From positions 23,472-87,471 of the forward strand of contig JBAXQK010000002.1 in the NCBI GenBank assembly GCA_037131775.1: DNA of 64,000 nt. Direction: 5' to 3'. The notes under the pieces were generated by a model that worked only from the letters and a program-made list of their open reading frames with translations, did not search any database and was not told the DNA's origin. Shown piece by piece: positions 6,303-59,662 of the stretch. The stretch's first letter is position 1. Each line of letters opens with the position of its first letter. The stretch is from Candidatus Uhrbacteria bacterium (GTDB lineage Bacteria > Patescibacteriota > Patescibacteriia > UBA9934 > GWF2-40-263). Position numbers and translations under genes: made by a program.

Positions 6303-7573
6303 TGCGAGTCGCGATCATCGGAGGGGGCGCGGCCGGGCTGATGGCCGCCGCGACGCTGCACGAGGACGATCCGTCCGTCGAGATCTTTTTGATTGAGCGC
6401 AACGACGGGCTCGGGAAGAAGGTCATCATCTCCGGTGGCGGGCGGTGCAACGTCACGACGGGCATTCGCGATGTGAAGACCGTCCTCACCAAATACCCGC
6501 GCGGCGGCAAGTTCCTCACCTCCGCCATGTACGCCTTCCCGCCCGAGGCGGTCGAGGCCTGGTTCGAATCGCACGGCGTCCCGCTCAAGACGCAGGCCGA
6601 CCTCCGCGTATTCCCCGTCTCCGACGACGGCCACGACATCGTCCGGGCGTTCGAGGAGCTGTTCGCGCTATCGAACGTCCACATCCTTTTGAAAACTTCC
6701 GCGACCCGCGTTGAGAAGCGCGGCGATGAATTTTTTATCTTTACGAAAGAGTCGCCCGACCCGATCGTCGCGGACCGTCTCGTCCTCACGACAGGCGGTC
6801 AGGCATACCGACACACGGGTTCGACCGGCGACGGCTACGCGTTTGCGACGGCGCTCGGACACACGATCACGCCGCTCGCCCCGAGCCTCAACGCATTCTT
6901 TACGAGCGAGACCTGGCCGAAGGAAATCTCAGGCCTCTCATTCGAGCGCGCGACGATCACCGCACATCGCCGTCCCAACAACCTGACCCCTTCGACCCCC
7001 TTGACCCCCCTGAACCCCTCTTTCACCGGTCCCTTCCTCTTCACCCACAAGGGCGTGAGCGGCCCGGCGGTTTTCGCGCTCTCGTCGATCGTCGCCTTCG
7101 AACCGTACGACGCGGCCAATCCGCTTGAAATCGCCATCGACCTGTTCCCCGACGAGACATCCGACGCCCTTCGATCCCGCGTCGAAACGGTCGCGACGAC
7201 AAACCCGAATAAGCGGTTCGACAACGTCCTCGGCCTCCTCGTTCCCAAGTCCCTGGCCGACATCGTCGTCGACCAGCTTGGAATTTCCAAAACAAAGAGC
7301 GCGAACCAGGTCGCCAAAAAGGACATGGCACGAACGGCCGGATGGCTCAAGTCGATCCCGCTCCACGTGGTCCAGCGCGGCGCCGGCGACGAGTTCGTGA
7401 CCGCGGGCGGGGTCGATCTTTCCGAAGTGGACCCGACCACCATGGAATCGCGCGTTTGCCCCGGATTGTACTTCGCCGGGGAGATTTTGGACGTGGACGG
7501 TTTCACCGGCGGCTTCAACCTCCAGGCGTCATGGGCGGCCGGGCATCTGGTAGGAAAATCGATTGTCCATTGA
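6299..7573 (+). CDS. FAD-dependent flavoprotein, HI0933/BaiN (aminoacetone-oxidase-like) family
   Basis: N-terminal dinucleotide fold RVAIIGGGAAGLMAA and a C-terminal GEILDVDGFTGGFNLQ motif are present. The start overlaps the ABC-F stop (ATGA). A low-complexity insert reads PNNLTPSTPLTPLNPS. Confidence 0.8.
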   Translation: MMRVAIIGGGAAGLMAAATLHEDDPSVEIFLIERNDGLGKKVIISGGGRCNVTTGIRDVKTVLTKYPRGGKFLTSAMYAFPPEAVEAWFESHGVPLKTQADLRVFPVSDDGHDIVRAFEELFALSNVHILLKTSATRVEKRGDEFFIFTKESPDPIVADRLVLTTGGQAYRHTGSTGDGYAFATALGHTITPLAPSLNAFFTSETWPKEISGLSFERATITAHRRPNNLTPSTPLTPLNPSFTGPFLFTHKGVSGPAVFALSSIVAFEPYDAANPLEIAIDLFPDETSDALRSRVETVATTNPNKRFDNVLGLLVPKSLADIVVDQLGISKTKSANQVAKKDMARTAGWLKSIPLHVVQRGAGDEFVTAGGVDLSEVDPTTMESRVCPGLYFAGEILDVDGFTGGFNLQASWAAGHLVGKSIVH

Positions 7574-8091: not shown

Positions 8092-9466
8092 ATCTCGCCA
8101 CCGCCACGTCGAACCCGGCGCCCTTCTCATCCCCCGTGACGACTGCGAGGTGCGCGCCCTTCTTGACCCACTTGCGGGCCCGCAGCTCGGCGATCGCCTT
8201 CTCGGCGAACCCGACGGACGACTTCGACTTCAGCACGAATGCACGGACGCCCCAGCGGATGCCGACCTGCCGCGCCTCGGCTTCCGTGGCGCAGCCAAGG
8301 AACAGCGGAACCTCGGGCCGCGCGATCATGAGCCTCTCCGCCCAGGGGGCGAACGAATGCGACGCGACGATTCCCGAGATGAGATCTCCCGCCACGAACG
8401 CCTTCAGCGTCTCGCTGAGCGCGCCGACTCCGGACCCCGCGATCTCTTCGGCGGCCACGTCGTCGAACTTCGACGCCTCGGTCTCCGCGATGATCTTTGC
8501 CATCGTCGCCACCGCCTGCTTCGGATACTTCCCCGTCGCGGACTCGCCCGAGAGCATCACCGCGTCCGCGTGGTCAATCACCGCGTTCGCAACGTCGGAC
8601 ACCTCGGCGCGCGTCGGCCGCGGGTTGCGGGTCATCGAGTCGAGCATCTGCGTCGCGACGACGACGGGCTTTCCCGCAAGGCGGCACTTCTCAACGATCT
8701 CCTTCTGTCGCAGCGGAACGTCCTCGGCCGGCGTCTCAACCCCGAGATCGCCACGCGCGACCATCACCGCGTCCGTCGCGGCCAGAATCTCGTCGAAGTT
8801 CTCGAGCGCCTCGTGCTTCTCGATCTTGACGATGATCTTCGGGAGTGACTGAGTGATGGAGTGATTGAGTGATGGAGAAGCTGCCGCGATCAGACGACGA
8901 AGCGTCTTCACGTCCTTTGCGGACGTAACGAACGACAGTGCCATCCAATCCACTCCCTGCTGAACACCAAAAATAATATCCTCCTTGTCCTTCGCGGTCA
9001 GCGACGAGACGCGCAAGGTCGAATCCGGGAAGTTCATCCCCTTGTGCGACGTGACCGTCCCGCCGTTCACGACCTTGGCCGTCATGAACCCGGCCTTCCC
9101 GCTCACGTACGACACCTCGATGATCCCGTCGTCGATCATGACTCGGTCGCCCCTCTTCACGTCCTTGTACAGCGCCGAGTACGTCACCGGAAGCGTAACC
9201 GTCTCGCCGTTCCTCAGAACGACTCCGGCGTCCGGCACGACCCCGATCCGAATCTTCGGTCCCTGCAGGTCGCCGAGGATCGCGACCGTCTCGCCCGCCT
9301 TCTTCGCCGTCGCACGAATCGTCCGCACGAGCTTCGCGTGCCCGGCGTGCGTGCCGTGCGAAAAGTTAAGACGCGCGACGTTCATCCCCGACTTGATCAT
9401 CGCGGACAATGTCGCGGGAGTGTCGGACGCCGGGCCGATGGTGCAGACGATCTTTGTGCGCTTCAT
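8090..9466 (-). CDS. pyk: pyruvate kinase
   Basis: N-terminal [11 protein letters not shown]+/substrate motifs and [10 protein letters not shown] are present. The protein is 458 aa. It carries an in-frame repeat-encoded insertion [13 protein letters not shown]. Confidence 0.9.
8842..8875. repeat. family-A 8-mer tandem repeat (GGAGTGAT/ATCACTCC units) embedded in-frame in pyk
   Basis: The sequence ggagtgactgagtgatggagtgattgagtgatgg was seen. It is related to the copies at 11214, 48253 and 50759. Confidence 0.7.
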
Positions 9467-10729: not shown

Positions 10730-11206
10730 CTATTTTTTCTTTTTTCCCGCCTTCGGTGCTGCGATGAGCGAGCGCAGCAGCTCCTCGAACGTCTTCACGT
10801 CGTCAAACGACTGGTACACCGACGCGAACCGTATGTACGCCACCTTGTCGAACGCCTTCAGTTGCTTCATGAGAAGCTCGCCAATGTCCTTCGCCGTCAG
10901 TTCCCCGCGCCGCTTCTTCTGGATGTCGCGCTCGATCTTGTGCACGATCTGCCGCAAATCGGCCTCCGTGTACGGCCGCTTTTCCAACGACTTCTCCAAC
11001 CCCTTGATCAACTTGTCCCGCGAATAGCTCTCCCGCCTCCCGTCCCGCTTCACCACGGTCAGGTCCAGCAGTTCCATTTCCTCGAGCGTCGAAAACCGAA
11101 ACTCGCACTTCTCGCACTCGCGTCGACGCCGAATGTTCATCCCGTCGGTGGATAACCGGGAGTCGACGACCTTCGTGTCGGAATTGTTGCAGACGGGACA
11201 GCGCAT
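10730..11206 (-). CDS. nrdR: transcriptional repressor NrdR
   Basis: Starts MRCPVCNN with the zinc ribbon CPVC...CEKC, followed by an ATP-cone. The longer track ORF N-terminus is repeat read-through. Confidence 0.9.
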   Translation of the reverse strand: MRCPVCNNSDTKVVDSRLSTDGMNIRRRRECEKCEFRFSTLEEMELLDLTVVKRDGRRESYSRDKLIKGLEKSLEKRPYTEADLRQIVHKIERDIQKKRRGELTAKDIGELLMKQLKAFDKVAYIRFASVYQSFDDVKTFEELLRSLIAAPKAGKKKK

Positions 11207-11213
11207 AAAAAAA

Positions 11214-11290
11214 GTGGTGGAGTGATGGAGTGGTGGAGTGGTGGAGTTTAACACTCAATCACTCAATCACTTCATCACTCCATCACTATT
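11214..11290. repeat. family-A palindromic repeat element (two arms of 8-mer units around loop TTAACA)
   Basis: GGTGGAGTGATGGAGTGGTGGAGTGGTGGAGT ... CTCAATCACTCAATCACTTCATCACTCCATCACT was seen. It lies between the ftsZ stop and the nrdR start. Confidence 0.75.
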
Positions 11291-11295
11291 ATACA

Positions 11296-12648
11296 CTACA
11301 TCATCTTCTTCCGGATAAACGCCGGGATCTCGATCTCCTCTTCCTCGGTTTGCTGCTTCTGCTGCGCCATCGGCTGCGGCGGAGGCGGCATGTACTGGGA
11401 GCTCGTCGGGGCCTGGCGCGCCTGGAAGCTCGGGGCACCGCTCTGCTGGATCGGGCTGCTCATGGTCGGCAGCGCGTACGACGGCTGGACGTATGCCGGC
11501 TGTGGCTGCTGGACCGGCATCGGCGGCGGCATCATCGGGCGCATGGGAGCCGGCTGGGGCTGCGGCTGAGGATAGCTTACCGGGGCCTTCTGCTGACGAC
11601 GGGCCTGGTCGTCTTCGCGAACGCGGAGCGGGGCCGGGGTCCAGGTGTTCTGGGCCGGGATCTCGACCACTCCGGGGGCGGCCATGCGTCGGTCGCGCGA
11701 GTCAAATCCCGTGGCAACGACGGTGATGCGAACCTCCTCGCCCATGCTCTCGTCGATGTTGGCGCCGAAGATGACGCGCGCGTCCTCGTCGGCCGAGCCG
11801 GTGATGATCTTGGCGGCCTCCGCGACCTCGTGCATGCCGAGGTCCGTTCCGCCCGTGATCGTGAACAGGATCCCCTTGGCGCCGTCGATGGCGACCTCGA
11901 GGAGCGGTGAGGCGATCGCCTGCTTGGCGGCCTCCACGGCGCGGTTCTCGCCGGTGGCGCGGCCGATGCCCATGAGCGCGGAGCCGGAGTTCTGCATGAT
12001 GGCCTTCACGTCGGCGAAGTCGACGTTGATGAGTCCCGGGATGGTGATGAGCTCGGAGATTCCCTGCACGCCCTGGCGGAGCACGTCGTCCACCACCTTG
12101 AACGCGTCGAGGAGCGAGGTCTTCTTGTCGATGATCTGGAGCACGCGGTCGTTCGGGATGGTAATGATCGTGTCCACGTACTGGAGAAGCTGCTGATACC
12201 CTTCCTCGGCGATGCGTCGGCGCTGGGCGCCCTCGAACGAGAATGGCTTCGTGACCACGGCGATGGTAAGCGCGCCGATTTCCTTCGCGACCTTCGCCAC
12301 CTCCGGCGTTGCCCCCGTTCCGGTTCCGCCTCCGAGCCCGCACGTCACGAACACCATGTCCGCGCCGTTGAGCACCGTGCGAATCTCGTTGACGCTTTCC
12401 TCGGCCGCGTGTCGACCGACTTCCGGGTTCATGCCGGCGCCAAGGCCGCGCGTTACCGTCTTTCCGATCGGAATCTTGTTCGGCGCGAGATTCTGATGGA
12501 GCGCCTGCACGTCCGTATTCACGACGATAAACTCGACGCCCTTGATCTTGTCCGAAATCATGCGGTTCACCGCCGCGCCTCCGCCCCCACCAATGCCAAC
12601 CACCTTGATCTTGGCAAACGTCTCAATGTCGGGTTTCACTTCGGCCAT
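11296..12648 (-). CDS. ftsZ: cell division GTPase FtsZ with long Pro/Gln-rich C-terminal linker
   Basis: The tubulin motif GGGTGTG is present. The protein is 450 aa with a C-terminal conserved peptide. Confidence 0.95.
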
Positions 12649-12756: not shown

Positions 12757-12765
12757 GGAGAAAAT

Positions 12766-12884
12766 GGATACGAAGCAACGAATTTCCTACCAAACTACGA
12801 AACAACAAAACGCTACAAAATACAGTGAATTTGTAGCGTTTTAAAATTCTGTAGTTTGGTAGCGGATTCGTGGATTGGTATCCC
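12766..12884. repeat. family-B long imperfect palindrome (GGATACGAA...CTACCAAACTACGAAAC // GTAGTTTGGTAG...TTGGTATCC)
   Basis: About 118 bp in the ftsA-ftsZ intergenic region. Half-copies occur at 16651 and 59596. Confidence 0.7.
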
Positions 12885-12888
12885 TTCG

Positions 12889-30620: not shown

Positions 30621-30653
30621 TTGATTATAACACAAAAGGGATCGAAGGGGTCA
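30621..30653 (-). promoter_or_regulatory. strong extended -10 promoter (TGACCC-18-TGtTATAAT) giving a near-leaderless transcript
   Basis: On the minus strand the sequence ctgaccccttcgatcccttttgtgttataatcaaaccaatATG was seen. The -10 ends about 10 nt before the start codon at 30614. Confidence 0.5.
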
Positions 30654-30717
30654 GAGGGATCGAGGGGATCCGTTCCCCATTTTCCCTTGAACCCTTCGAA
30701 CCCTTCGAAACCCCCGA

Positions 30718-30963: not shown

Positions 30964-31023
30964 ACTATTTTCACCTTCCTTTCATTGATTAAGATACCGG
31001 GAGGATAACAGGGGGGAGATAAA

Positions 31024-31141
31024 GAGTCAAGAATCAAGAATGCAAGATGCAAGGAAGACTTAAAATTCAAAGGTAAAAATTGAAATTTAAGATTTTACCC
31101 TTGATTCTTCCTTGTTTCTTGCCCTTCTTGTATCTTGAGTC
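31024..31141 (-). promoter_or_regulatory. long imperfect hairpin of inverted TTCTTG-type units with an AT-rich loop in the hisS-rpsU spacer
   Basis: Arm GAGTCAAGAATCAAGAATGCAAGATGCAAGGAAGA faces arm TCTTCCTTGTTTCTTGCCCTTCTTGTATCTTGAGTC. It could be a processing or attenuation structure. Confidence 0.3.
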
Positions 31142-32556: not shown

Positions 32557-32668
32557 AGTCGTGAGATTAGGCTTAAGGCTGAAAGGCAGAAGGCTTAAGA
32601 AAATGCAGAACGGCGCCGGAAACGTCTCCCGTATGCCTTACGCCTTTCAGCCTTAAGCCTCTCGATTT

Positions 32669-46581: not shown

Positions 46582-47046
46582 ATGACTTTGACAACGCACG
46601 CGACGCTCGGGGCGGTCATTGGCCACGCGGTTGGAAATCCGGTGGTTGCCTTCGTCCTTGGGTTCATTTCCCACTTCATGATCGACATGATCCCGCACGG
46701 CGACACCGGAATCTCGGACAACTTTCGCGTCCACAAGACGCGCCAAACCCAAGCCGTGGCCTACGTGGCCGTCGACGCCATCGTCGCGCTCCTCTTCGTT
46801 CTCCTCCTCGCCAACACCCGCGACATCGACCACGTCCGCACGTTTACCTGGGGCATTATCGGCAGCGTCCTCCCCGATTTGATCGTCGGCGTCTACGAAG
46901 TCACCAAGACCCCGCTGCTGCGATGGTTCAACACGATGCATTTCTACTTCCATGATTTCTTCGTAAAGAGGCGCGGAGAGGTTCCGCTGTATTATGCCTT
47001 GTTGGCGCAGGTGGTGTTGATTGCTTATTTGCAGACGAAGTTGTAA
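46582..47046 (+). CDS. membrane-bound metal-dependent hydrolase-like protein (YdjM/DUF457-like)
   Basis: Starts MTLTTHATLGAVIGHAV...HFMIDMIPHGD. It has 4 TM segments and conserved His/Asp residues. Confidence 0.55.
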   Translation: MTLTTHATLGAVIGHAVGNPVVAFVLGFISHFMIDMIPHGDTGISDNFRVHKTRQTQAVAYVAVDAIVALLFVLLLANTRDIDHVRTFTWGIIGSVLPDLIVGVYEVTKTPLLRWFNTMHFYFHDFFVKRRGEVPLYYALLAQVVLIAYLQTKL

Positions 47047-47051
47047 TCGCG

Positions 47052-47080
47052 AAAAAAAGAACTCCGTAAGGAGTTTTTTT
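47052..47080. terminator. bidirectional intrinsic terminator
   Basis: AAAAAAAGAACTCCGTAAGGAGTTTTTTT. Confidence 0.6.
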
Positions 47081-47089
47081 GTGGCTTGC

Positions 47090-47660
47090 CGCCACACCGC
47101 GTCACTTTCTTTCAGCCGTGAAAGAAAGTAACCAAAGAAACCGTCCGCCCGGTCTCCATGGCGGGCCGGGACGGAAAAGGCGGCCTCGGCTGCGGAACTC
47201 GCTAGTCCGCCAAGTAAAACAAAAAGAGCGGAACTTCGCTCAGACAATCCTCGCCCGTCCTGATGGACCCGGCCGCCTTTTCCGTCCCGTCTCCATCCGT
47301 CATTCCGACAGGGCGGGTTATCCGGGCGGTGTTGCGATGGTTATTTTTGGCTGAGGCCGTAATAACTTTCAACGTTTCCCCTCCTCATAGGGAGGAGGGG
47401 TCAGGGGTGGCCGTCGCGCCATAAACAAAAAACTTCCATCCGGTCGCCGCCCTGCCGGAGCGACCCAGCCAGGACGTGAAAAATTGGCGGGTGCATCAGC
47501 ACGGGCGAGGATTGTCTGAGCGTGCGAGCCCGTAGGCGAGAAGCGAGTTCCGCAGCCGAGCCAATTTTTCGCGTTCTGGCGTAGGAGCGGATGGCCGGGC
47601 GGAAGGCTCTCTTTGCCTACTTTCTCTGTCCGCCCCACAGAGAAAGTAGGTCGGGTGCAG
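47090..47660. other. approximately 570-bp noncoding region dense in nested inverted repeats and hairpins (candidate structured RNA, or a MITE-like repeat pile-up)
   Basis: Terminal hairpins are CACTTTCTTTCA-GCCG-TGAAAGAAAGT (47107-47135) and CCTACTTTCTCTGT-CCGCCC-CACAGAGAAAGTAGG (47617-47651). Internal pairs include GGACGGAAAAGGCGGCC with GGCCGCCTTTTCCGTCC, CTCGGCTGCGGAACTCGC with GCGAGTTCCGCAGCCGAG, and CAGACAATCCTCGCCCGT with ACGGGCGAGGATTGTCTG. It also contains one family-C hairpin. Confidence 0.5.
47373..47418 (+). repeat. family-C GC-hairpin repeat (copy 1)
   Basis: GTTTCCCCTCCTCATAGGGAGGAGGGGTCAGGGGTGGCCGTCGCG, with a 9-bp perfect stem CCCCTCCTC/GAGGAGGGG. Confidence 0.75.
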
Positions 47661-47687
47661 GGCGAAGCGCCTGCGGAAAAAACATCC

Positions 47688-48731
47688 CTAAACCTTTTCG
47701 ATTATCGAAACAATCCCCCGAGCACACCGCTCCCAGGTAAACTCCCCTGCCCGCGCCTTTGCCGCGGCAATCATCTCCCCGAGCGCCTCCGGCATCATCA
47801 CGCACTGGGCGATCGCAAACGCCATCTGCTCGGCATCGTCGGGATCGACGTACATCACCGCGTCGCCCCCAACCTCCGGCAATGCGCCGCGGTTCGACGT
47901 GACGACCGGAACCCCGGCCGACATCGCCTCTAGGACCGGCAGGCCGAACCCTTCCTCCCACGACGGAAAGAAAAAGCACGACGCCTGCGCGTACAGGTTC
48001 GCCTTCTCGTCCTCGGTCACGTATCCGACCTGCCGCACGACATTTCCTCCCGCGACCGACCGCCACGCATCGTTCGTCTGCGCGATCGCCTCGAGGATTG
48101 GCTCGGCGTTCCAACCGATGCCGCCGGCGATTACGAATCGCGTCGTCGCGGCGCGATCCTTGTGCATGCGCAGGAACGCGTCGAACGCGGCGAGCGCGTT
48201 GACGAGGTTCTTGCGCGGCTCGAGGGTGCCGACGAAGAGGATCGTGTCGGAGGTGAGTAGTGAGTGATTGGTAGTTTGTAGTTTGGAGACACCCGGATAT
48301 ACCACGACCACCTTGTCGACGACATCCGGAAACACTCGTCCAATCTGTCGCTTCGTCGCCTCGGAGATCGCGATGACCGCGTCCGCCCGTCGCAGCGACC
48401 TAGGGACGAGGAACTTCGCGGCGAAGTCGAGCTTCGTCGCCGGGAACCATTCGGGGTGCTCGTAGATGGTCAGGTCGTGAACCGTCACGACGGTCTTTCC
48501 CGTCCAGCACAGTGGCGACTGATTGGCCGGGCAGAACAGGACGTCCGTCATCTTCATCGTCGCGACGAGCGCCAGGTTCACGTGGCGCGTCAGAAACGGG
48601 ACGCGGCGCTTTGGGTTCCAAACGAAGAGATCCGTTCCAAGAACGGATCGCATGGCCGTGACGACGGAGCGCGTGTACGTGCCGATTCCCGCGCCGTCCC
48701 GCATCGTGGTGCCGTCGACCGCGATCCTCAT
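47688..48731 (-). CDS. glycosyltransferase family 4 (GT-B fold)
   Basis: The start was reassigned to MRIAVDGTT (ATG 48731). The C-terminal motif is EGFGLPVLEAMSAGVPVV. A repeat-encoded in-frame insert KLQTTNHSLLTSDT sits at the inter-domain linker. Confidence 0.8.
   Translation of the reverse strand: MRIAVDGTTMRDGAGIGTYTRSVVTAMRSVLGTDLFVWNPKRRVPFLTRHVNLALVATMKMTDVLFCPANQSPLCWTGKTVVTVHDLTIYEHPEWFPATKLDFAAKFLVPRSLRRADAVIAISEATKRQIGRVFPDVVDKVVVVYPGVSKLQTTNHSLLTSDTILFVGTLEPRKNLVNALAAFDAFLRMHKDRAATTRFVIAGGIGWNAEPILEAIAQTNDAWRSVAGGNVVRQVGYVTEDEKANLYAQASCFFFPSWEEGFGLPVLEAMSAGVPVVTSNRGALPEVGGDAVMYVDPDDAEQMAFAIAQCVMMPEALGEMIAAAKARAGEFTWERCARGIVSIIEKV
48253..48287. repeat. composite family-A/family-B repeat fragment embedded in-frame in the GT4 gene
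   Basis: GTGAGTAGTGAGTGATTGG followed by TAGTTTGTAGTTTGGAG. Confidence 0.6.
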
Positions 48732-50181: not shown

Positions 50182-50750
50182 AGGGCGGAGTCATTGAGCG
50201 AGGAGGTCATCGAGTCGCTGAGCGAGTCGACGAGCTCCGTCATCTTCTTGTCGTCGTGCAGGTCGAGATAGTCGGGAAGGTCCGCGATCGAGTGGATCCC
50301 AAGGTGCCGCACGAAGTCCGCGGACACGGTAAACACCGGCTGCAGACGCTCGATGTCGTCGACCTCGTCCACGAGTCCTCGCATAGAGAGGTTACGCAGG
50401 ATGAGCGAGCAGTTCACGCCGCGAATCTGCTCGATCTCCGGCTTCGTGATCGGCCCGCGGTATGCGATGATGGTCAGCGTCTCAAGCGACGGCCGCGACA
50501 GTTCCCCGCTCACCTCCTCCTTCAAAAGCGCCGCGACGACCGCGGACTCGGACGGGTTCGTAACGAACTGCAGCTTCCCCCCGTGCTCGACCACGTGGAT
50601 GCCGGACGCGTCGACGTTGAATCGCACCTTCACGTCCGCGATCGCCTCGAGAAGCACCTCGTCGGAAACGTTCAGCGACTTTTTCAAAACCGAAATCGCG
50701 ACCGGCTTTGCCGACGCGAATAGGATCGATTCGAGGGAGGTCGTGAGCAT
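50178..50750 (-). CDS. scpB: segregation and condensation protein B
   Basis: Tandem winged helices are present (LETLTIIAYRGPITKPEIEQIRGV). Confidence 0.9.
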   Translation of the reverse strand: MLTTSLESILFASAKPVAISVLKKSLNVSDEVLLEAIADVKVRFNVDASGIHVVEHGGKLQFVTNPSESAVVAALLKEEVSGELSRPSLETLTIIAYRGPITKPEIEQIRGVNCSLILRNLSMRGLVDEVDDIERLQPVFTVSADFVRHLGIHSIADLPDYLDLHDDKKMTELVDSLSDSMTSSLNDSAL

Positions 50751-50758
50751 AGGGGAAA

Positions 50759-50828
50759 GTGGTGGAGTGACGGAGTGATGGAGTACCTAACCACTCCACG
50801 ACTTCATCACTTCATCACTCAATCACTC
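50759..50828. repeat. family-A palindromic repeat element
   Basis: GGTGGAGTGACGGAGTGATGGAGT-ACCTAA-CCACTCCACGACTTCATCACTTCATCACTCAATCACTC was seen. It encodes the last two codons of scpA. Confidence 0.7.
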
Positions 50829-51514
50829 TTCGTAATCAGTATATCGTGAAACGACCCTCCTTGGACAGCCTTCACCACGCGCTGCTTCATGAGCTCGAGG
50901 AGCGCGAGGAAACTGACGACGACCTCGACCTTCGACGCGCCGCTCGCGACCATCTCGTGGAACAGGACCTTCGATCGGTCGACCATCGCGGCCTGGAGCT
51001 GCTTCATGCGCTCCTGGATGGACACGACGCGCTCGATCGACGACTGTCGCAGCGCGAAGAACGGCTCGAGGCGCTTCTGCACGGCCTGGAACAGCTCGCG
51101 GAGAATCGGCGGCGTCACGTTCTTCGGCGGAAGGAACTGACGCACCTTCGCGATCGACGCCTTCTCCCGCGCGAACATGTCCTTCCCCGCCCCGAACATC
51201 TCCTCGATCATCGCCGACGCGTGCACGAAACGCTTGTACATCCGCAGCTGATCGGCAAGCTTCGCCCCGTCCTCCTCCGCGTCGAGGTTCAGCTGCGGAA
51301 GGATGGCGTGCGACTTGATGAGCAGCAACTTCGTCGCGACGACGAGGAAATCCGCCAGCTCTTCAGCGGGAACCTCGTGCTCGTTCACGTGCCTCAGATA
51401 GTCCTCGGTGACCTTCGCAAGAGAAACCTCCGTAATCGGAAGTTTCTCTTGCTCGATCAGGTCGAGAAGAAGTTGGAGAGGGCCGGAGTATTGGTCGAGG
51501 GTGACTTGGAACAT
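50819..51514 (-). CDS. scpA: segregation and condensation protein A
   Basis: Starts MFQVTLDQYSGPLQLLLDLIEQEKLPITEVSLAKVTEDYL. The start was reassigned. Confidence 0.85.
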   Translation of the reverse strand: MFQVTLDQYSGPLQLLLDLIEQEKLPITEVSLAKVTEDYLRHVNEHEVPAEELADFLVVATKLLLIKSHAILPQLNLDAEEDGAKLADQLRMYKRFVHASAMIEEMFGAGKDMFAREKASIAKVRQFLPPKNVTPPILRELFQAVQKRLEPFFALRQSSIERVVSIQERMKQLQAAMVDRSKVLFHEMVASGASKVEVVVSFLALLELMKQRVVKAVQGGSFHDILITKSD

Positions 51515-51610
51515 AGGGCGCATGGGGCTCATTAGGCACATTTGGCGCATGGGGAATGACGCGGTGGCCAATGAGCCTTATGCGCCCCATGAGCCCCGTG
51601 CGCCCATCCT

Positions 51611-53005: not shown

Positions 53006-53020
53006 AGAATTTTTCTTTAC

Positions 53021-53067
53021 ACGTTTCCCCTCCTCATAGGGAGGAGGGGTCAGGGGTGGTCGTCGCG
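53021..53067 (+). repeat. family-C GC-hairpin repeat (copy 2), in the aspS 5' leader
   Basis: Nearly identical to copy 1; TGGTCGTCGCG variant. Confidence 0.75.
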
Positions 53068-56234: not shown

Positions 56235-56246
56235 TTTCTTTTTTCT

Positions 56247-56292
56247 CGTTCCCCCTCCTCATAGGGAGGAGGGGTCAGGGGTGGTCGTCGCG
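56247..56292 (+). repeat. family-C GC-hairpin repeat (copy 3), between ruvX stop and recO start
   Basis: CCCCCTCCTCATAGGGAGGAGGGGTCAGGGGTGGTCGTCGCG. Confidence 0.75.
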
Positions 56293-58128: not shown

Positions 58129-58133
58129 ATGTT

Positions 58134-58688
58134 CTAAGTTTTTTGGGTGGTGGAATTTTTGGGTGGATTGAATCTGCCCAGCACAATGTAGTAAAAAATA
58201 CGTGCAAAAATCCTAAACAACAATATCCAGATAAGTGGAAGACCGAGAAATGCCAAACTAATATTCAACCAACGTGGTTGTGTAATGATTGATAAGTTGT
58301 AAAGTCTGTGCTTATCAAAACATTCTGAATCTGTTAACTCACTTGATAAGAGACAGTCTGTCATTAAACGCCTGGATTCTGTTTCATCTCTGAAAGAAAA
58401 GTTACAATGCGTAAGAATTGATGTATCGTCTACATGAAGTTGCCCATTATACAGCCTAGAGAATATCTCATCAGAAGAGATTTTAGCATCTACGAGTGTG
58501 GATGATTTTCCAGAACCGCAACGAATGGTTGAATCATCGTAATTAATGGCAAGTCCGTTTTGATGAATAATAAATAAATAATAGCTTGCCGCAATCACAA
58601 ACAATAACACACAAACACTAACAACCTTCAGCAGGCGAAACCACACGCGTGTGTTCAGTTCTTGAATGGAGTGAATTTTATTACTCAT
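58134..58688 (-). CDS. hypothetical membrane protein (2 TM, Cys-containing extracytoplasmic loop) in the AT-rich island
   Basis: About 33% GC versus about 60% surroundings. It is translationally coupled to the upstream ORF by an ATGA overlap. Confidence 0.5.
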   Translation of the reverse strand: MSNKIHSIQELNTRVWFRLLKVVSVCVLLFVIAASYYLFIIHQNGLAINYDDSTIRCGSGKSSTLVDAKISSDEIFSRLYNGQLHVDDTSILTHCNFSFRDETESRRLMTDCLLSSELTDSECFDKHRLYNLSIITQPRWLNISLAFLGLPLIWILLFRIFARIFYYIVLGRFNPPKNSTTQKT

Positions 58689-59026
58689 AGAGATGTCGCT
58701 TTATTTGCGGCAAATTCATCCACTCCCGTTTTAATTTCGATTAGTTCTTGATATCGAATGGGCGACGGTATGTAAAAATCAAGAATGGAACTATTCGTCA
58801 GTATTAACTCTATCACCTCACGATCGGTCAGATTTTCAAAAAGAATTACCCGTAGCGCAACTTTAATATCAGCCTTTTGCCAAGGAAGCTCGTCTTCAAA
58901 AAAATATAGTCCAGGACGCCTATTCTCAAGATACAAAGCAAAATCACCTACAACTTCCCACGCGGTTTTAGAATCTAGATTTTTTTTAAGATCGTCTGCG
59001 AGAGATTTTTGAAAACTCATACGCAA
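58685..59026 (-). CDS. hypothetical protein (113 aa) in the AT-rich island
   Basis: AT-rich codon usage. Tightly packed in the operon. Confidence 0.5.
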   Translation of the reverse strand: MRMSFQKSLADDLKKNLDSKTAWEVVGDFALYLENRRPGLYFFEDELPWQKADIKVALRVILFENLTDREVIELILTNSSILDFYIPSPIRYQELIEIKTGVDEFAANKATSL

Positions 59027-59029
59027 TAA

Positions 59030-59320
59030 TCACCACAGCTGGATACAAATACCCCTTGCTGCGGAGATACAATAAACACTTCTAAAGGAGTGGCGAATTT
59101 TAATTGTTTTATGCATCATCTCGTGAATGTTTGTATTTGTCCATGGGAAAATTCCAAAGTTGATCAGTAATTGTAAGGTTTTTTGAGTATCTATTGAATA
59201 CTCTTCTGCCTTATGTCCCAAAGCCTCTCTTATCCTTATGGCATCATTTTGTATTCTCAACGCTGGAAGATCGAAAGACTCTCCACGTTCATATTTTTTT
59301 AATTGGGCGAGTTGAAACAT
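59030..59320 (-). CDS. hypothetical protein (96 aa) in the AT-rich island
   Basis: AT-rich. It overlaps the upstream ORF by 22 nt in another frame, so the two may be one frameshifted gene. Confidence 0.4.
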   Translation of the reverse strand: MFQLAQLKKYERGESFDLPALRIQNDAIRIREALGHKAEEYSIDTQKTLQLLINFGIFPWTNTNIHEMMHKTIKIRHSFRSVYCISAARGICIQLW

Positions 59321-59556
59321 ATTCCGGAATTCAGGCTCCTCAAATGGTGTATTCCGAACGGGAACAGCATAACAATTTGGACCATTAGATTATTTTCAAT
59401 TTCAGAATTCTTAATTTTAAAGAGAAGATCACACTCTGGTTCTAAATATTCTTGATCTTTAACTTCAAAAGAATACTTTGTGGAATTAATTTTATTGTAT
59501 GTAGAAACAAACAAATTGCCAATTTCCCTTAATTCATCACGGCTTGGTTCTGACAT
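59299..59556 (-). CDS. hypothetical protein (85 aa) in the AT-rich island
   Basis: AT-rich. First gene of the island. Confidence 0.35.
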   Translation of the reverse strand: MSEPSRDELREIGNLFVSTYNKINSTKYSFEVKDQEYLEPECDLLFKIKNSEIENNLMVQIVMLFPFGIHHLRSLNSGICFNSPN

Positions 59557-59595
59557 ATTTCCCGCTCATTATACCAGAAGACGAGGACTCTCGCC

Positions 59596-59657
59596 CCCGT
59601 CTTTGTAGCAATCCGTAGTATTTGTAGTTTAGCGGCCAATTCGTAGTTTCGTATCCC
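59596..59657. repeat. family-B half-copy at the secY-proximal boundary of the AT-rich island
   Basis: TTTGTAGCAATCCGTAGTATTTGTAGTTTAGCGGCCAATTCGTAGTTTCGTATCC. Confidence 0.6.
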
Positions 59658-59662
59658 TGTCT

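Follow-up and report, generated by a model that had tools for sequence, protein, structure and literature searches.

A short tandem-repeat array carried in frame in the pyruvate kinase gene of a Candidatus Uhrbacteria bacterium

Introduction

Short tandemly repeated repetitive (STRR) sequences form several families of units of the 7-nt class, which are dispersed in the genome, are often arranged as inverted arrays capable of forming hairpins and are known in a variable helix of RNase P RNA. In the present study, a 64,000-nt stretch of a Candidatus Uhrbacteria genome of ~62% G+C (contig JBAXQK010000002.1, positions 23,472 to 87,471; hereafter the window) has been analysed, with emphasis on an octamer repeat, family A, which lies in frame in the pyruvate kinase gene (pyk). 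Heptamer arrays of the STRR type are named for cyanobacteria in PMC2858038. Rickettsia palindromic elements (RPEs) are described as discrete elements, ~100-150 bp in length, which have a consensus for each family and encode a conserved peptide (Ogata et al. 2000, as summarised in PMC10969869); the latter source also lists SPRITE, a pneumococcal mobile terminator-like repeat.

An earlier note on this DNA had described family A as a small mobile palindromic element with full palindromes in two intergenic regions and partial in-frame copies in pyk and in a GT4 glycosyltransferase gene, and had likened it to RPEs. The closest described repeats are the cyanobacterial STRR in architecture and the repetitive extragenic palindromic (REP)-type and terminator-like repeats in genomic position. 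A limited search of open-access and bioRxiv full texts has returned no description of such arrays from the Candidate Phyla Radiation, none of these sequences and no specific account of tandem-unit hairpins.

Results

Family-A octamer array inside pyk

The family-A units read GGAGTGAT/TGAGTGAT, or alternatively GGAGTGAT/ATCACTCC. With the two-unit pattern GAGTGATKGAGTGAT and at most 3 mismatches, 16 matches were found in the window against a mean of 2.06 in shuffled windows, none of the 100 shuffles attaining 16. The units are present as the earlier note had claimed. All but one of the 16 matches are confined to positions 8843-8873, 11212-11288 and 50757-50828. In the pyk array (Table 1), Tandem Repeats Finder (TRF) counted 4.4 tandem units when the period was 8 nt and 2.2 units, matching at 95%, when it was 16 nt. 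Its 36 nt code for residues 197-209, between RRLIAAA and the catalytic KIEKHEA strand, and it is in frame and free of stop codons, with the peptide and position that had been reported. The array has a single orientation and no RNA fold (-1.9 and -10.7 kcal/mol; z = +1.1 and +0.3). The identical gene with its array is present in an independent Logan assembly (SRR7053541, L001), which in practice excludes an assembly artefact. The length of the family-A allele is equal in the window, L001 and the related loci L133 and L004, with an intact frame in all four.

The orientation of the array can be related to stop codons. The ATCACTCN orientation is stop-free in all three frames and, since three units of 8 nt make 24 nt, every frame yields the same cyclic octapeptide. 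The GGAGTGAT arm has a TGA in each unit, which visits every frame within three units, and a full family-A hairpin is therefore unreadable. Because only the ATCACTCN orientation lacks stops, pyk holds a single unstructured arm, and family A can persist in a gene solely as the ATCACTCN arm in that orientation. The GGAGGGTC family found in relatives is open in both orientations, and in the in-frame hairpin of L005, where the units are 9 nt long, the TGA stays outside the reading frame. The two cases are consistent with this rule, which is a filter argument and not an independent test, as only intact genes were looked at. A search of 5.8 billion proteins with the peptide (SLNHSITQ)n gave 2 short hypothetical matches, the query being too short to inform.

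Pyruvate kinase and its variable loop

The pyk product is 100% identical to a protein of an NCBI Candidatus Uhrbacteria metagenome-assembled genome (MAG). Its AlphaFold2 (AF2) model has a mean predicted local distance difference test (pLDDT) score of 87.9 and shows a helix at residues 183-199, a coil at 200-209 and a strand at 210-215, so that the insert comprises the helix end and the coil. In the coil, the 10-residue pLDDT mean falls to 68, and mapping on the structure thus places the insert in low-confidence coil. The strand that directly follows bears the invariant K214 and E216. In triosephosphate isomerase (TIM)-barrel enzymes, the N-terminal strand ends face away from the active site, and the insertion site is permissive because it lies at such an end, opposite the active site. 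The insert is carried in a permissive surface loop of an intact, otherwise highly conserved enzyme.

The peptide has moreover been found to be an insertion relative to homologs, as the earlier note had proposed. Solved pyruvate kinases in the PDB align to it with a gap of 7-9 residues. Native short loops occur in orthologs: in ~35 pyk loci of Uhrbacteria/Parcubacteria, drawn from metagenomes, the loop is non-repetitive and of constant length, typically KAAAKPGQVLPR, and the LSFV-to-KIEK span is 32 residues in those loci versus 37 in the window. Within the clade of the window, the related protein P0007 (91% backbone identity) retains a native-like AAAGTVGKPLPR loop (AAA-GTVGKP-LPR), and P0012, P0013 and P0017 have only GKAP(I/V) at this place. 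From these alignments, the pyk segment is judged to be a repeat-derived replacement with a net gain and not a native conserved sequence. A metagenome scan for pyk relatives returned none above 75% identity and hence no further close alleles.

A second hypervariable site of pyk was observed after ASKFDDV (window 8330-8440, residues ~343-380; alignment columns 395-420). It is short in the window and P0002, carries TGLSSEASAKGE in P0003, P0004 and P0010, and has an in-frame SPGPSPLEGEG resembling D7, a palindromic element treated below, in P0005 and P0009. In L005 and L133, D7-like copies lie in frame at the linker of the A and C domains of pyk.

Exchange of cassettes at the pyk loop

The comparison of near-identical relatives has shown that the loop changes independently of the gene that carries it. 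On the coding strand, the window cassette reads ATCACTCA ATCACTCC ATCACTCA GTCACTCC and that of L002 and L009 reads GGAGGGTC GGAGGGTC GGAGGGTC GAAGGTTC. In L005, 9-mers of the AGGCTGAA type make up a complete hairpin that is in frame (-38.1 kcal/mol, z -4.4), L008 has CTACACG-type heptamers, L004 and L133 have family A, and L007 has no cassette. At the nucleotide level, the window and L002 are 95.4% identical over the backbone and 44% over the patch; for L133 and L005 the values are 99.2% and 53%, and for the window and L004 they are 62% and 80%. In protein comparison without the loop, the window and P0002 as well as P0005 and P0009 are 97% identical, the loops being unrelated within each pair, and P0003 and P0005 share an identical loop at just 90% backbone identity. 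The loop alleles conflict with the gene tree, and relatives of 48% G+C bear allele A. These comparisons show the pyk loop to be a swap site, at which backbones of 97-99% identity bear unrelated cassettes.

L133 and L005 are identical in 138 of 184 bins of 100 nt over 18.5 kb. Of their two large differences, one is the pyk patch and the other lies in the flavoprotein gene, where a D7-like palindrome of 39 nt stands in frame. The pyk patch measures ~140 nt, of which 25-50 nt at either end are diverged flank. The flanks of the patch in L002 and L133 are richer in AT-ending codons than the rest of pyk. Of the several breaks in the BLAST alignments of the window with L002 (92-97% identity), two fall at the hairpins of ftsA-ftsZ and ftsZ-nrdR and one at the pyk loop. 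The family that a genome has in pyk recurs nearby in that genome.

Intergenic hairpins

At least 7 intergenic hairpins with arms of tandem 7-9-nt units were found in the window (Table 1). The unit differs at most loci, and at least 7 unit families of 7-9 nt are present within 64 kb. Full palindromes of family A exist at both intergenic sites named previously. The arms of the ftsZ-nrdR hairpin (11210-11247/11253-11290, 38 nt) are 82% complementary and those of the scpA-scpB hairpin 85%; RNA folding gave z-scores of -3.5 to -9.6 for the two. The former folds at -44.8 kcal/mol on the gene strand and -52.1 kcal/mol on the + strand, and the predicted folds of the latter range from -31.6 to -38.7 kcal/mol. 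The + strand is antisense to the flanking genes, and both hairpins (window 11200-11300 and 50750-50835) are more stable on it by ~7 kcal/mol; where the arms mismatch, the pairs are G:U on the + strand and A:C on the gene strand.

At fixed intergenic sites with conserved flanks, tandem-unit hairpins, D7, ordinary terminator hairpins or nothing alternate between relatives. After ftsZ, the window has a family-A hairpin followed by T7, L002, L005 and L009 have a short ordinary stem with a T-run, and the distant L004 and L008 again have family-A arrays. After ftsA, the long CTAC-type hairpin with TTTTCT is shared with L005, and L002 and L009 have a short ordinary terminator. The scpA-scpB site is empty in L131 and occupied by family A in the window, and L130 has a hairpin there whose units are altered in concert in both arms (GAGTCGTT; -43 kcal/mol, z -5.8). 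The unit family at 30636-30709 is that of the cassettes in the pyk of L002 and in the flavoprotein gene. A clear T-run follows the stem at 11210-11290, 12763-12886 and 30636-30709, and none follows at 50757-50828, 32569-32660 and 51516-51605.

The scpA stop codon TGA (50819-50821) falls within the first hairpin unit. The final codons and stop of scpA, AGT GAT TGA, coincide with the first family-A unit (window 50819-50830), and in the hairpin-free L131 (7960-7995) scpA ends in AGC GAC TAG. The array may have either absorbed or rewritten the end of scpA, with Ser-Asp-stop preserved.

Table 1. Positions of pyk, of the repeat arrays and of the hairpins in the window
Feature	Position	Strand	Remarks
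In-frame 9-mer array (TGACCCCCT, GGGTCRA family) in the HI0933-like flavoprotein gene	6984..7019	+	TRF; peptide NNLTPSTPLTPLNPS
Pyruvate kinase gene, 458 aa	8090..9466	-	PK barrel domain in Pfam, E=2e-111; lowest E among PDB matches, 3e-93
Single-arm family-A array in pyk, in frame	8842..8877	-	Coding strand TCTCC ATCACTCA ATCACTCC ATCACTCA GTCACTCC CG
Family-A hairpin, ftsZ stop (11296) to nrdR start (~11206)	11210..11290	.	Followed by T7 and ATG on the gene strand
Long hairpin of CTACRAAA-type units, ftsA-ftsZ	12763..12886	.	TTTTCT and a promoter-like TTGACA site come after it on the gene strand
Hairpin of 9-mer units GGGATCGAG/CCCTTCGAA	30636..30709	.	T-run after it on the gene strand
Hairpin of AAGAATC-type 7-mer units	31022..31122	.
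Hairpin of AGGCTTA/AGGCTGAA units	32569..32660	.	Family of the in-frame pyk hairpin of L005
GT4 inter-domain linker, weak repeat character	48253..48287	-	Units: CAAACTA (two), AATCACTC (one)
Family-A hairpin, scpA-scpB	50757..50828	.	Arms 50765-50784/50809-50828 (20 nt), 85% complementary
Hairpin of 9-mer units GGGCGCATG, aspS stop to scpA start	51516..51605	.	Not in L130, L131
D7 element	53010..53067	-	One of three window copies; others at 47361-47418 and 56235-56292

The D7 element, the GT4 linker and the flavoprotein gene

D7 is a discrete palindromic element of ~45-58 nt, in which CCCCTCCTC, a loop and GAGGAGGGG are followed by a conserved tail, TCAGGGGTGGTCGTCGCG. Its copies are >88% alike, and all three in the window have the same orientation. 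Two of these (53010-53067 and 56235-56292) were observed just upstream of the start codons of aspS and recO. Further copies lie in relatives at L130:10440-10502, L131:10444-10499, L005:12703-12768 and ~11058-11090, and L133 ~8783-8815. D7 is present or absent among close relatives, and it lies in frame in their GT4 and flavoprotein genes and at the second variable pyk site. At the ruvX-recO site, the window has D7, L130 an ordinary terminator and L131 nothing; upstream of aspS, the window has D7, L130 a hairpin of the GGGTCGAA family and L131 a small hairpin.

The GT4 gene starts at 48731 and codes for 347 aa. Its proposed family-A copy does encode LQTTNHSLLTSD at the junction of the Pfam domains Glyco_transf_4 and Glycos_transf_1, as had been stated, but the segment (coding strand CCAAACTACAAACTACCAATCACTCACTACTCACC) gave no match to the family-A pattern even at 3 mismatches, and the linker is no longer than in most orthologs. 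Its CAAACTA units resemble the hairpin family at 12763-12886, and the GT4 gene of L132 (76% identical) has a homologous, less repetitive sequence at the linker. The segment holds one family-A unit and is not a net insertion, and its assignment to family A appears doubtful. The linker is nonetheless a cassette site, because relatives hold D7 there in frame: in the GT4 genes of L130 and L131 (84-90% identity), the 45-nt palindrome gives VSPPHREEG(S/T)GVV. In case of the HI0933-like flavoprotein gene, the in-frame 9-mer array is not found in L005 and L133, and related units are present in L002 and L009.

Distribution of the octamer arrays across phyla

In one-genome-per-species contigs, at least 120 stretches match the pattern AGTGATNNAGTGATNNAGTGAT, i.e. 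(AGTGATNN)3 arrays, against a chance expectation that we estimate at ~17 for uniform composition; the scan was run without a control octamer, and breadth is claimed here, not special enrichment. Among the matches listed are Bacteroidota, Verrucomicrobiota, Planctomycetota, Gemmatimonadota, Acidobacteriota, Proteobacteria, Calothrix and Uhrbacteria. The arrays among these matches reach up to 19 units; some have an inverted partner, many adjoin arrays of other units, and some show blocks of progressively mutated units. Two Calothrix contigs among them bear (GGAGTGAT)n, which in L021 adjoins heptamer arrays. Because the same octamer arrays occur in many phyla, family A is regarded as a class of short tandem repeat (STRR-like) and not as one lineage-specific discrete mobile element.

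Among the loci L010-L129 (e.g. L117, L055, L126 and L111), CAT was also observed next to many of the (GGAGTGAT)n arrays. As CAT reads ATG on the opposite strand, these arrays lie immediately upstream of a start codon and give ATCACTCC repeats on the mRNA strand. A count of spanning open reading frames (ORFs), 45 of 127, was discarded as a measure of arrays in coding sequence, since stop-to-stop ORFs cross arrays that are just upstream of starts. ATCACTCC is one base off ATCACCTCC, which we take to be the 3' tail of 16S rRNA, and the D7 stem (53026-53048) is CCTCC/GGAGG. Both family-A and D7 hairpins look like Shine-Dalgarno:anti-Shine-Dalgarno duplexes.

Discussion

Proposed origin of the pyk insert

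On balance, we lean towards the reading that the pyk insert is the passenger arm of a tandem-repeat stem-loop element, which would have entered by copy-choice and spread by short-patch recombination. This Uhrbacteria lineage carries several stem-loop families with 3-5 copies of a 7-9-nt unit, usually together with an inverted array that gives a stem of 30-57 bp, and the usual home of these elements is at gene junctions, at the same positions as the ordinary terminator or inter-cistronic hairpins of sister strains. In pyk, a copy would have replaced the native 6-residue loop with 11 residues, and it is tolerated there through a length that is a multiple of three, a low-confidence surface loop and a stop-free arm. 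The insert would then be a passenger and not a functional part of pyruvate kinase.

Entry may have occurred by copy-choice (template switch) or by illegitimate recombination, for which a transposase would be unnecessary. Transposition is disfavoured because terminal repeats, target duplications and a transposase were not seen in the DNA of the window and its relatives. The scanned ORFs of the window and the gene tables of its syntenic relatives, which cover ~100 kb, gave no Pfam domain of a transposase or reverse transcriptase. No target-site duplication was found at ftsZ-nrdR (window versus L002), at scpA-scpB (window versus L131) or in the flavoprotein gene (L005 versus L133); these three pairs of filled and empty sites show replacement, with boundaries blurred by diverged flanks. 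A discrete transposable element has not been recovered, as the ~64 kb window and ~100 kb of relatives show no fixed length, core, terminal inverted repeats (TIRs), target duplication or transposase. Short-patch homologous recombination, which would carry an allele between related populations, is proposed as the reason why strains of 97-99% identity have unrelated cassettes with diverged flanks of ~25-50 nt. The AT-ending codons in the patch flanks of L002 and L133 and the occurrence of allele A in relatives of 48% G+C speak for such import.

Several points weigh against this origin. A clear T-run follows only 3 of 7 intergenic hairpins, which makes the equivalence to terminators partial. The microhomology at the junctions, AGCGACTAG versus AGTGATTGA at the scpA end and CTTCC versus CTCCC in pyk, is at most suggestive of template switching. 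P0007, the closest uninserted allele, was compared as protein, and the boundaries of the pyk insertion are approximate. The search for enzymes was limited to 64 kb of the genome, and a trans-acting enzyme may be encoded elsewhere. The diverged flanks could stem from the insertion process and not from recombination. Further, the nucleotide identity of the window and L004 in the patch is inflated by low complexity and by the conserved KIEKHEA codons.

Other explanations

[quoted passage not shown] The same families are present at several loci of a genome, presence and absence vary between strains, the pyk of L005 has a full hairpin in frame, and D7 has a fixed sequence with a conserved tail and copies >88% alike, all of which would be expected of a transposon. 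The arrays themselves have no fixed length, ends or non-repeat core; filled and empty sites differ by replacement with no duplicated target, and neither the window ORFs nor the relatives' gene tables gave a transposase. Moreover, arrays of the same octamer occur in many phyla as pure microsatellite-like runs of up to 19 units.

The arrays may instead have been born locally by slipped-strand duplication of native codons from an 8-nt seed with quick turnover, the shared families being convergent; such an origin has a low probability in our estimate. It would explain the likeness of AGCGACTAG, with which scpA natively ends in L131, to the first unit AGTGATTGA, the likeness of CAAATCCTTCC, the native loop end of L141, to CAATCACTCC, and the resemblance of the pyk array to a duplicated 16-mer. 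The blocks of progressively mutated units in arrays of other genomes and the concerted change of units in both arms of the L130 scpA-scpB hairpin relative to that of the window also fit slippage. What speaks against it is that cassettes share no sequence at 95-99% flank identity and even differ in strand composition, that the flanks are diverged too, that identical cassettes sit on backbones merely 90% identical, and that the same family recurs at unrelated loci of one genome.

A functional element, maintained by diversifying or regulatory selection on the loop, as a frameshift (phase-variation) switch or as an mRNA-level signal, is very improbable. As 8 nt is not a multiple of three, the gain or loss of a single unit would turn pyk off in the manner of contingency loci, and the pyk site is hypervariable; but the units are imperfect, and four independent sequences at 62-100% backbone identity have arrays of equal length. 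Pyruvate kinase is cytoplasmic, the insert has no RNA fold, insert-free alleles exist, and the same repeats also fill unrelated proteins and intergenic sites. Although short repeats can mislead assemblers, an assembly or binning artefact has a negligible chance, given the identical gene in the independent Logan assembly, the homologous family-A alleles in three assemblies from other samples (L004, L133 and P0003) and the intact reading frame.

A wider form of the copy-choice and recombination reading can also be put forward, which in its entirety seems to us improbable. The clade would have fixed "ports", i.e. gene junctions and a few protein loops, that swap stem-loop cassettes, namely tandem-unit hairpins of several families, D7 and ordinary terminators, far faster than point substitution through hairpin-directed, transposase-free copying; the (GGAGTGAT)n arrays across phyla would be products of the same general process. 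In view of the likeness of family A and D7 to Shine-Dalgarno duplexes, the cassettes might also tune translation or termination at gene junctions.

Comparison with described repeat systems

The likeness to RPEs holds in effect: repeat DNA of intergenic type also lies in frame in unrelated housekeeping enzymes at sites compatible with the fold, and several families coexist in one genome, as described for RPEs in PMC10969869. In-frame insertion in intact, unrelated genes was found in pyk, in the HI0933-like flavoprotein gene and in the GT4 gene of relatives; the sites are permissive positions of the fold, in pyk a coil (AF2 model, PDB gap) and in GT4 the space between two Pfam domains. The pyk insert, on the other hand, is neither a discrete consensus element nor a palindromic copy but 36 nt of 8-nt units of varying sequence. 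The hairpin copies are 70-125 nt long with a variable number of units and no shared non-repeat core, and one site bears different families in near-identical strains. Within this lineage, D7 is more RPE-like than family A. The analogy of the earlier note is hence upheld for the tolerance of in-frame palindromic repeats in the pyk, GT4 and flavoprotein genes of relatives and fails for the window's pyk copy, which is non-palindromic; our verdict is that the system is RPE-like in effect and not a member of an RPE family.

With STRR it shares several families of tandem units of the 7-nt class dispersed in one genome. It differs in that the units are mostly of 8-9 nt and that the arrays lie in frame in enzymes and are exchanged like cassettes; STRR are known from heterocyst-forming cyanobacteria, and the host here is Candidatus Uhrbacteria, a small-genome candidate-phylum bacterium. 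REP sequences, bacterial interspersed mosaic elements (BIMEs), REP doublets forming hairpins (REPINs) and SPRITE are likewise imperfect palindromes at gene 3' ends and operon junctions, some with a U-tract, at terminator positions. Compared with REP and REPIN, no REP-associated tyrosine transposase (RAYT, TnpA-REP) or other transposase was seen in the scanned DNA of the window and relatives, and the stems consist of tandem units and are much longer (30-57 bp). The elements do not form a single conserved palindrome of 20-40 nt, and they also enter coding sequence. MITEs differ too, as the pyk copy has one orientation and the intergenic copies are inverted arrays over their full length, with no TIRs flanking an internal region.

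Simple sequence repeat (SSR) contingency loci, as in Haemophilus (PMC8262952), also have tandem units of a length that is not a multiple of three inside a reading frame; the units here are imperfect, their number is fixed, and variation occurs by wholesale replacement. The palindromic selfish repeats of Volvox organelles (PMC2670323) and the in-frame MITEs of Coxiella (PMC5896051) are small hairpin repeats of compact genomes that also occur in coding regions, whereas they have other hosts and sequences and are not presented there as built of tandem units.

With the present case, the carriage of selfish repeats by essential protein-coding genes, a theme of Rickettsia and a few other reduced genomes, would be extended to the Candidate Phyla Radiation, with the insert taking the form of a short tandem-repeat array and not of a discrete element. 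Strain-level exchange of cassettes at fixed sites is a problem for MAG annotation, strain typing and ortholog alignment, and it offers a natural experiment on loops that tolerate arbitrary peptides. The stop-codon rule predicts, family by family, which orientation may enter genes. If the intergenic copies act as terminators, they would be terminators that turn over as mobile modules.

Other features of the window

In a scan of the window with Rfam at the gathering threshold, only tRNAs were found; matches of the long hairpins to miRNA precursors at an E-value threshold fell far short of the gathering threshold and were rejected as generic hairpin matches. A reading of the repeats as a CRISPR-like array was ruled out, there being no spacers. 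The promoter and terminator scan missed the long stems owing to its limits on stem and loop. The intergenic region at 47046-47688 (640 nt) has no Rfam match and is dense in inverted repeats, including 47167-47185/47271-47289 with perfect 19-nt arms and 47468-47488/47560-47580, together with one D7 copy; it might hold an uncharacterised RNA or several stacked elements. In the ribosomal-protein/secY/adk cluster, a 1.4-kb island of 42% G+C (58131-59554), which is not in L131, lies between secY and adk and contains 3-4 small ORFs, for which Pfam gave no match. Its secY-side junction is adjoined by a CTAC-type array of a single arm (~59590-59660).

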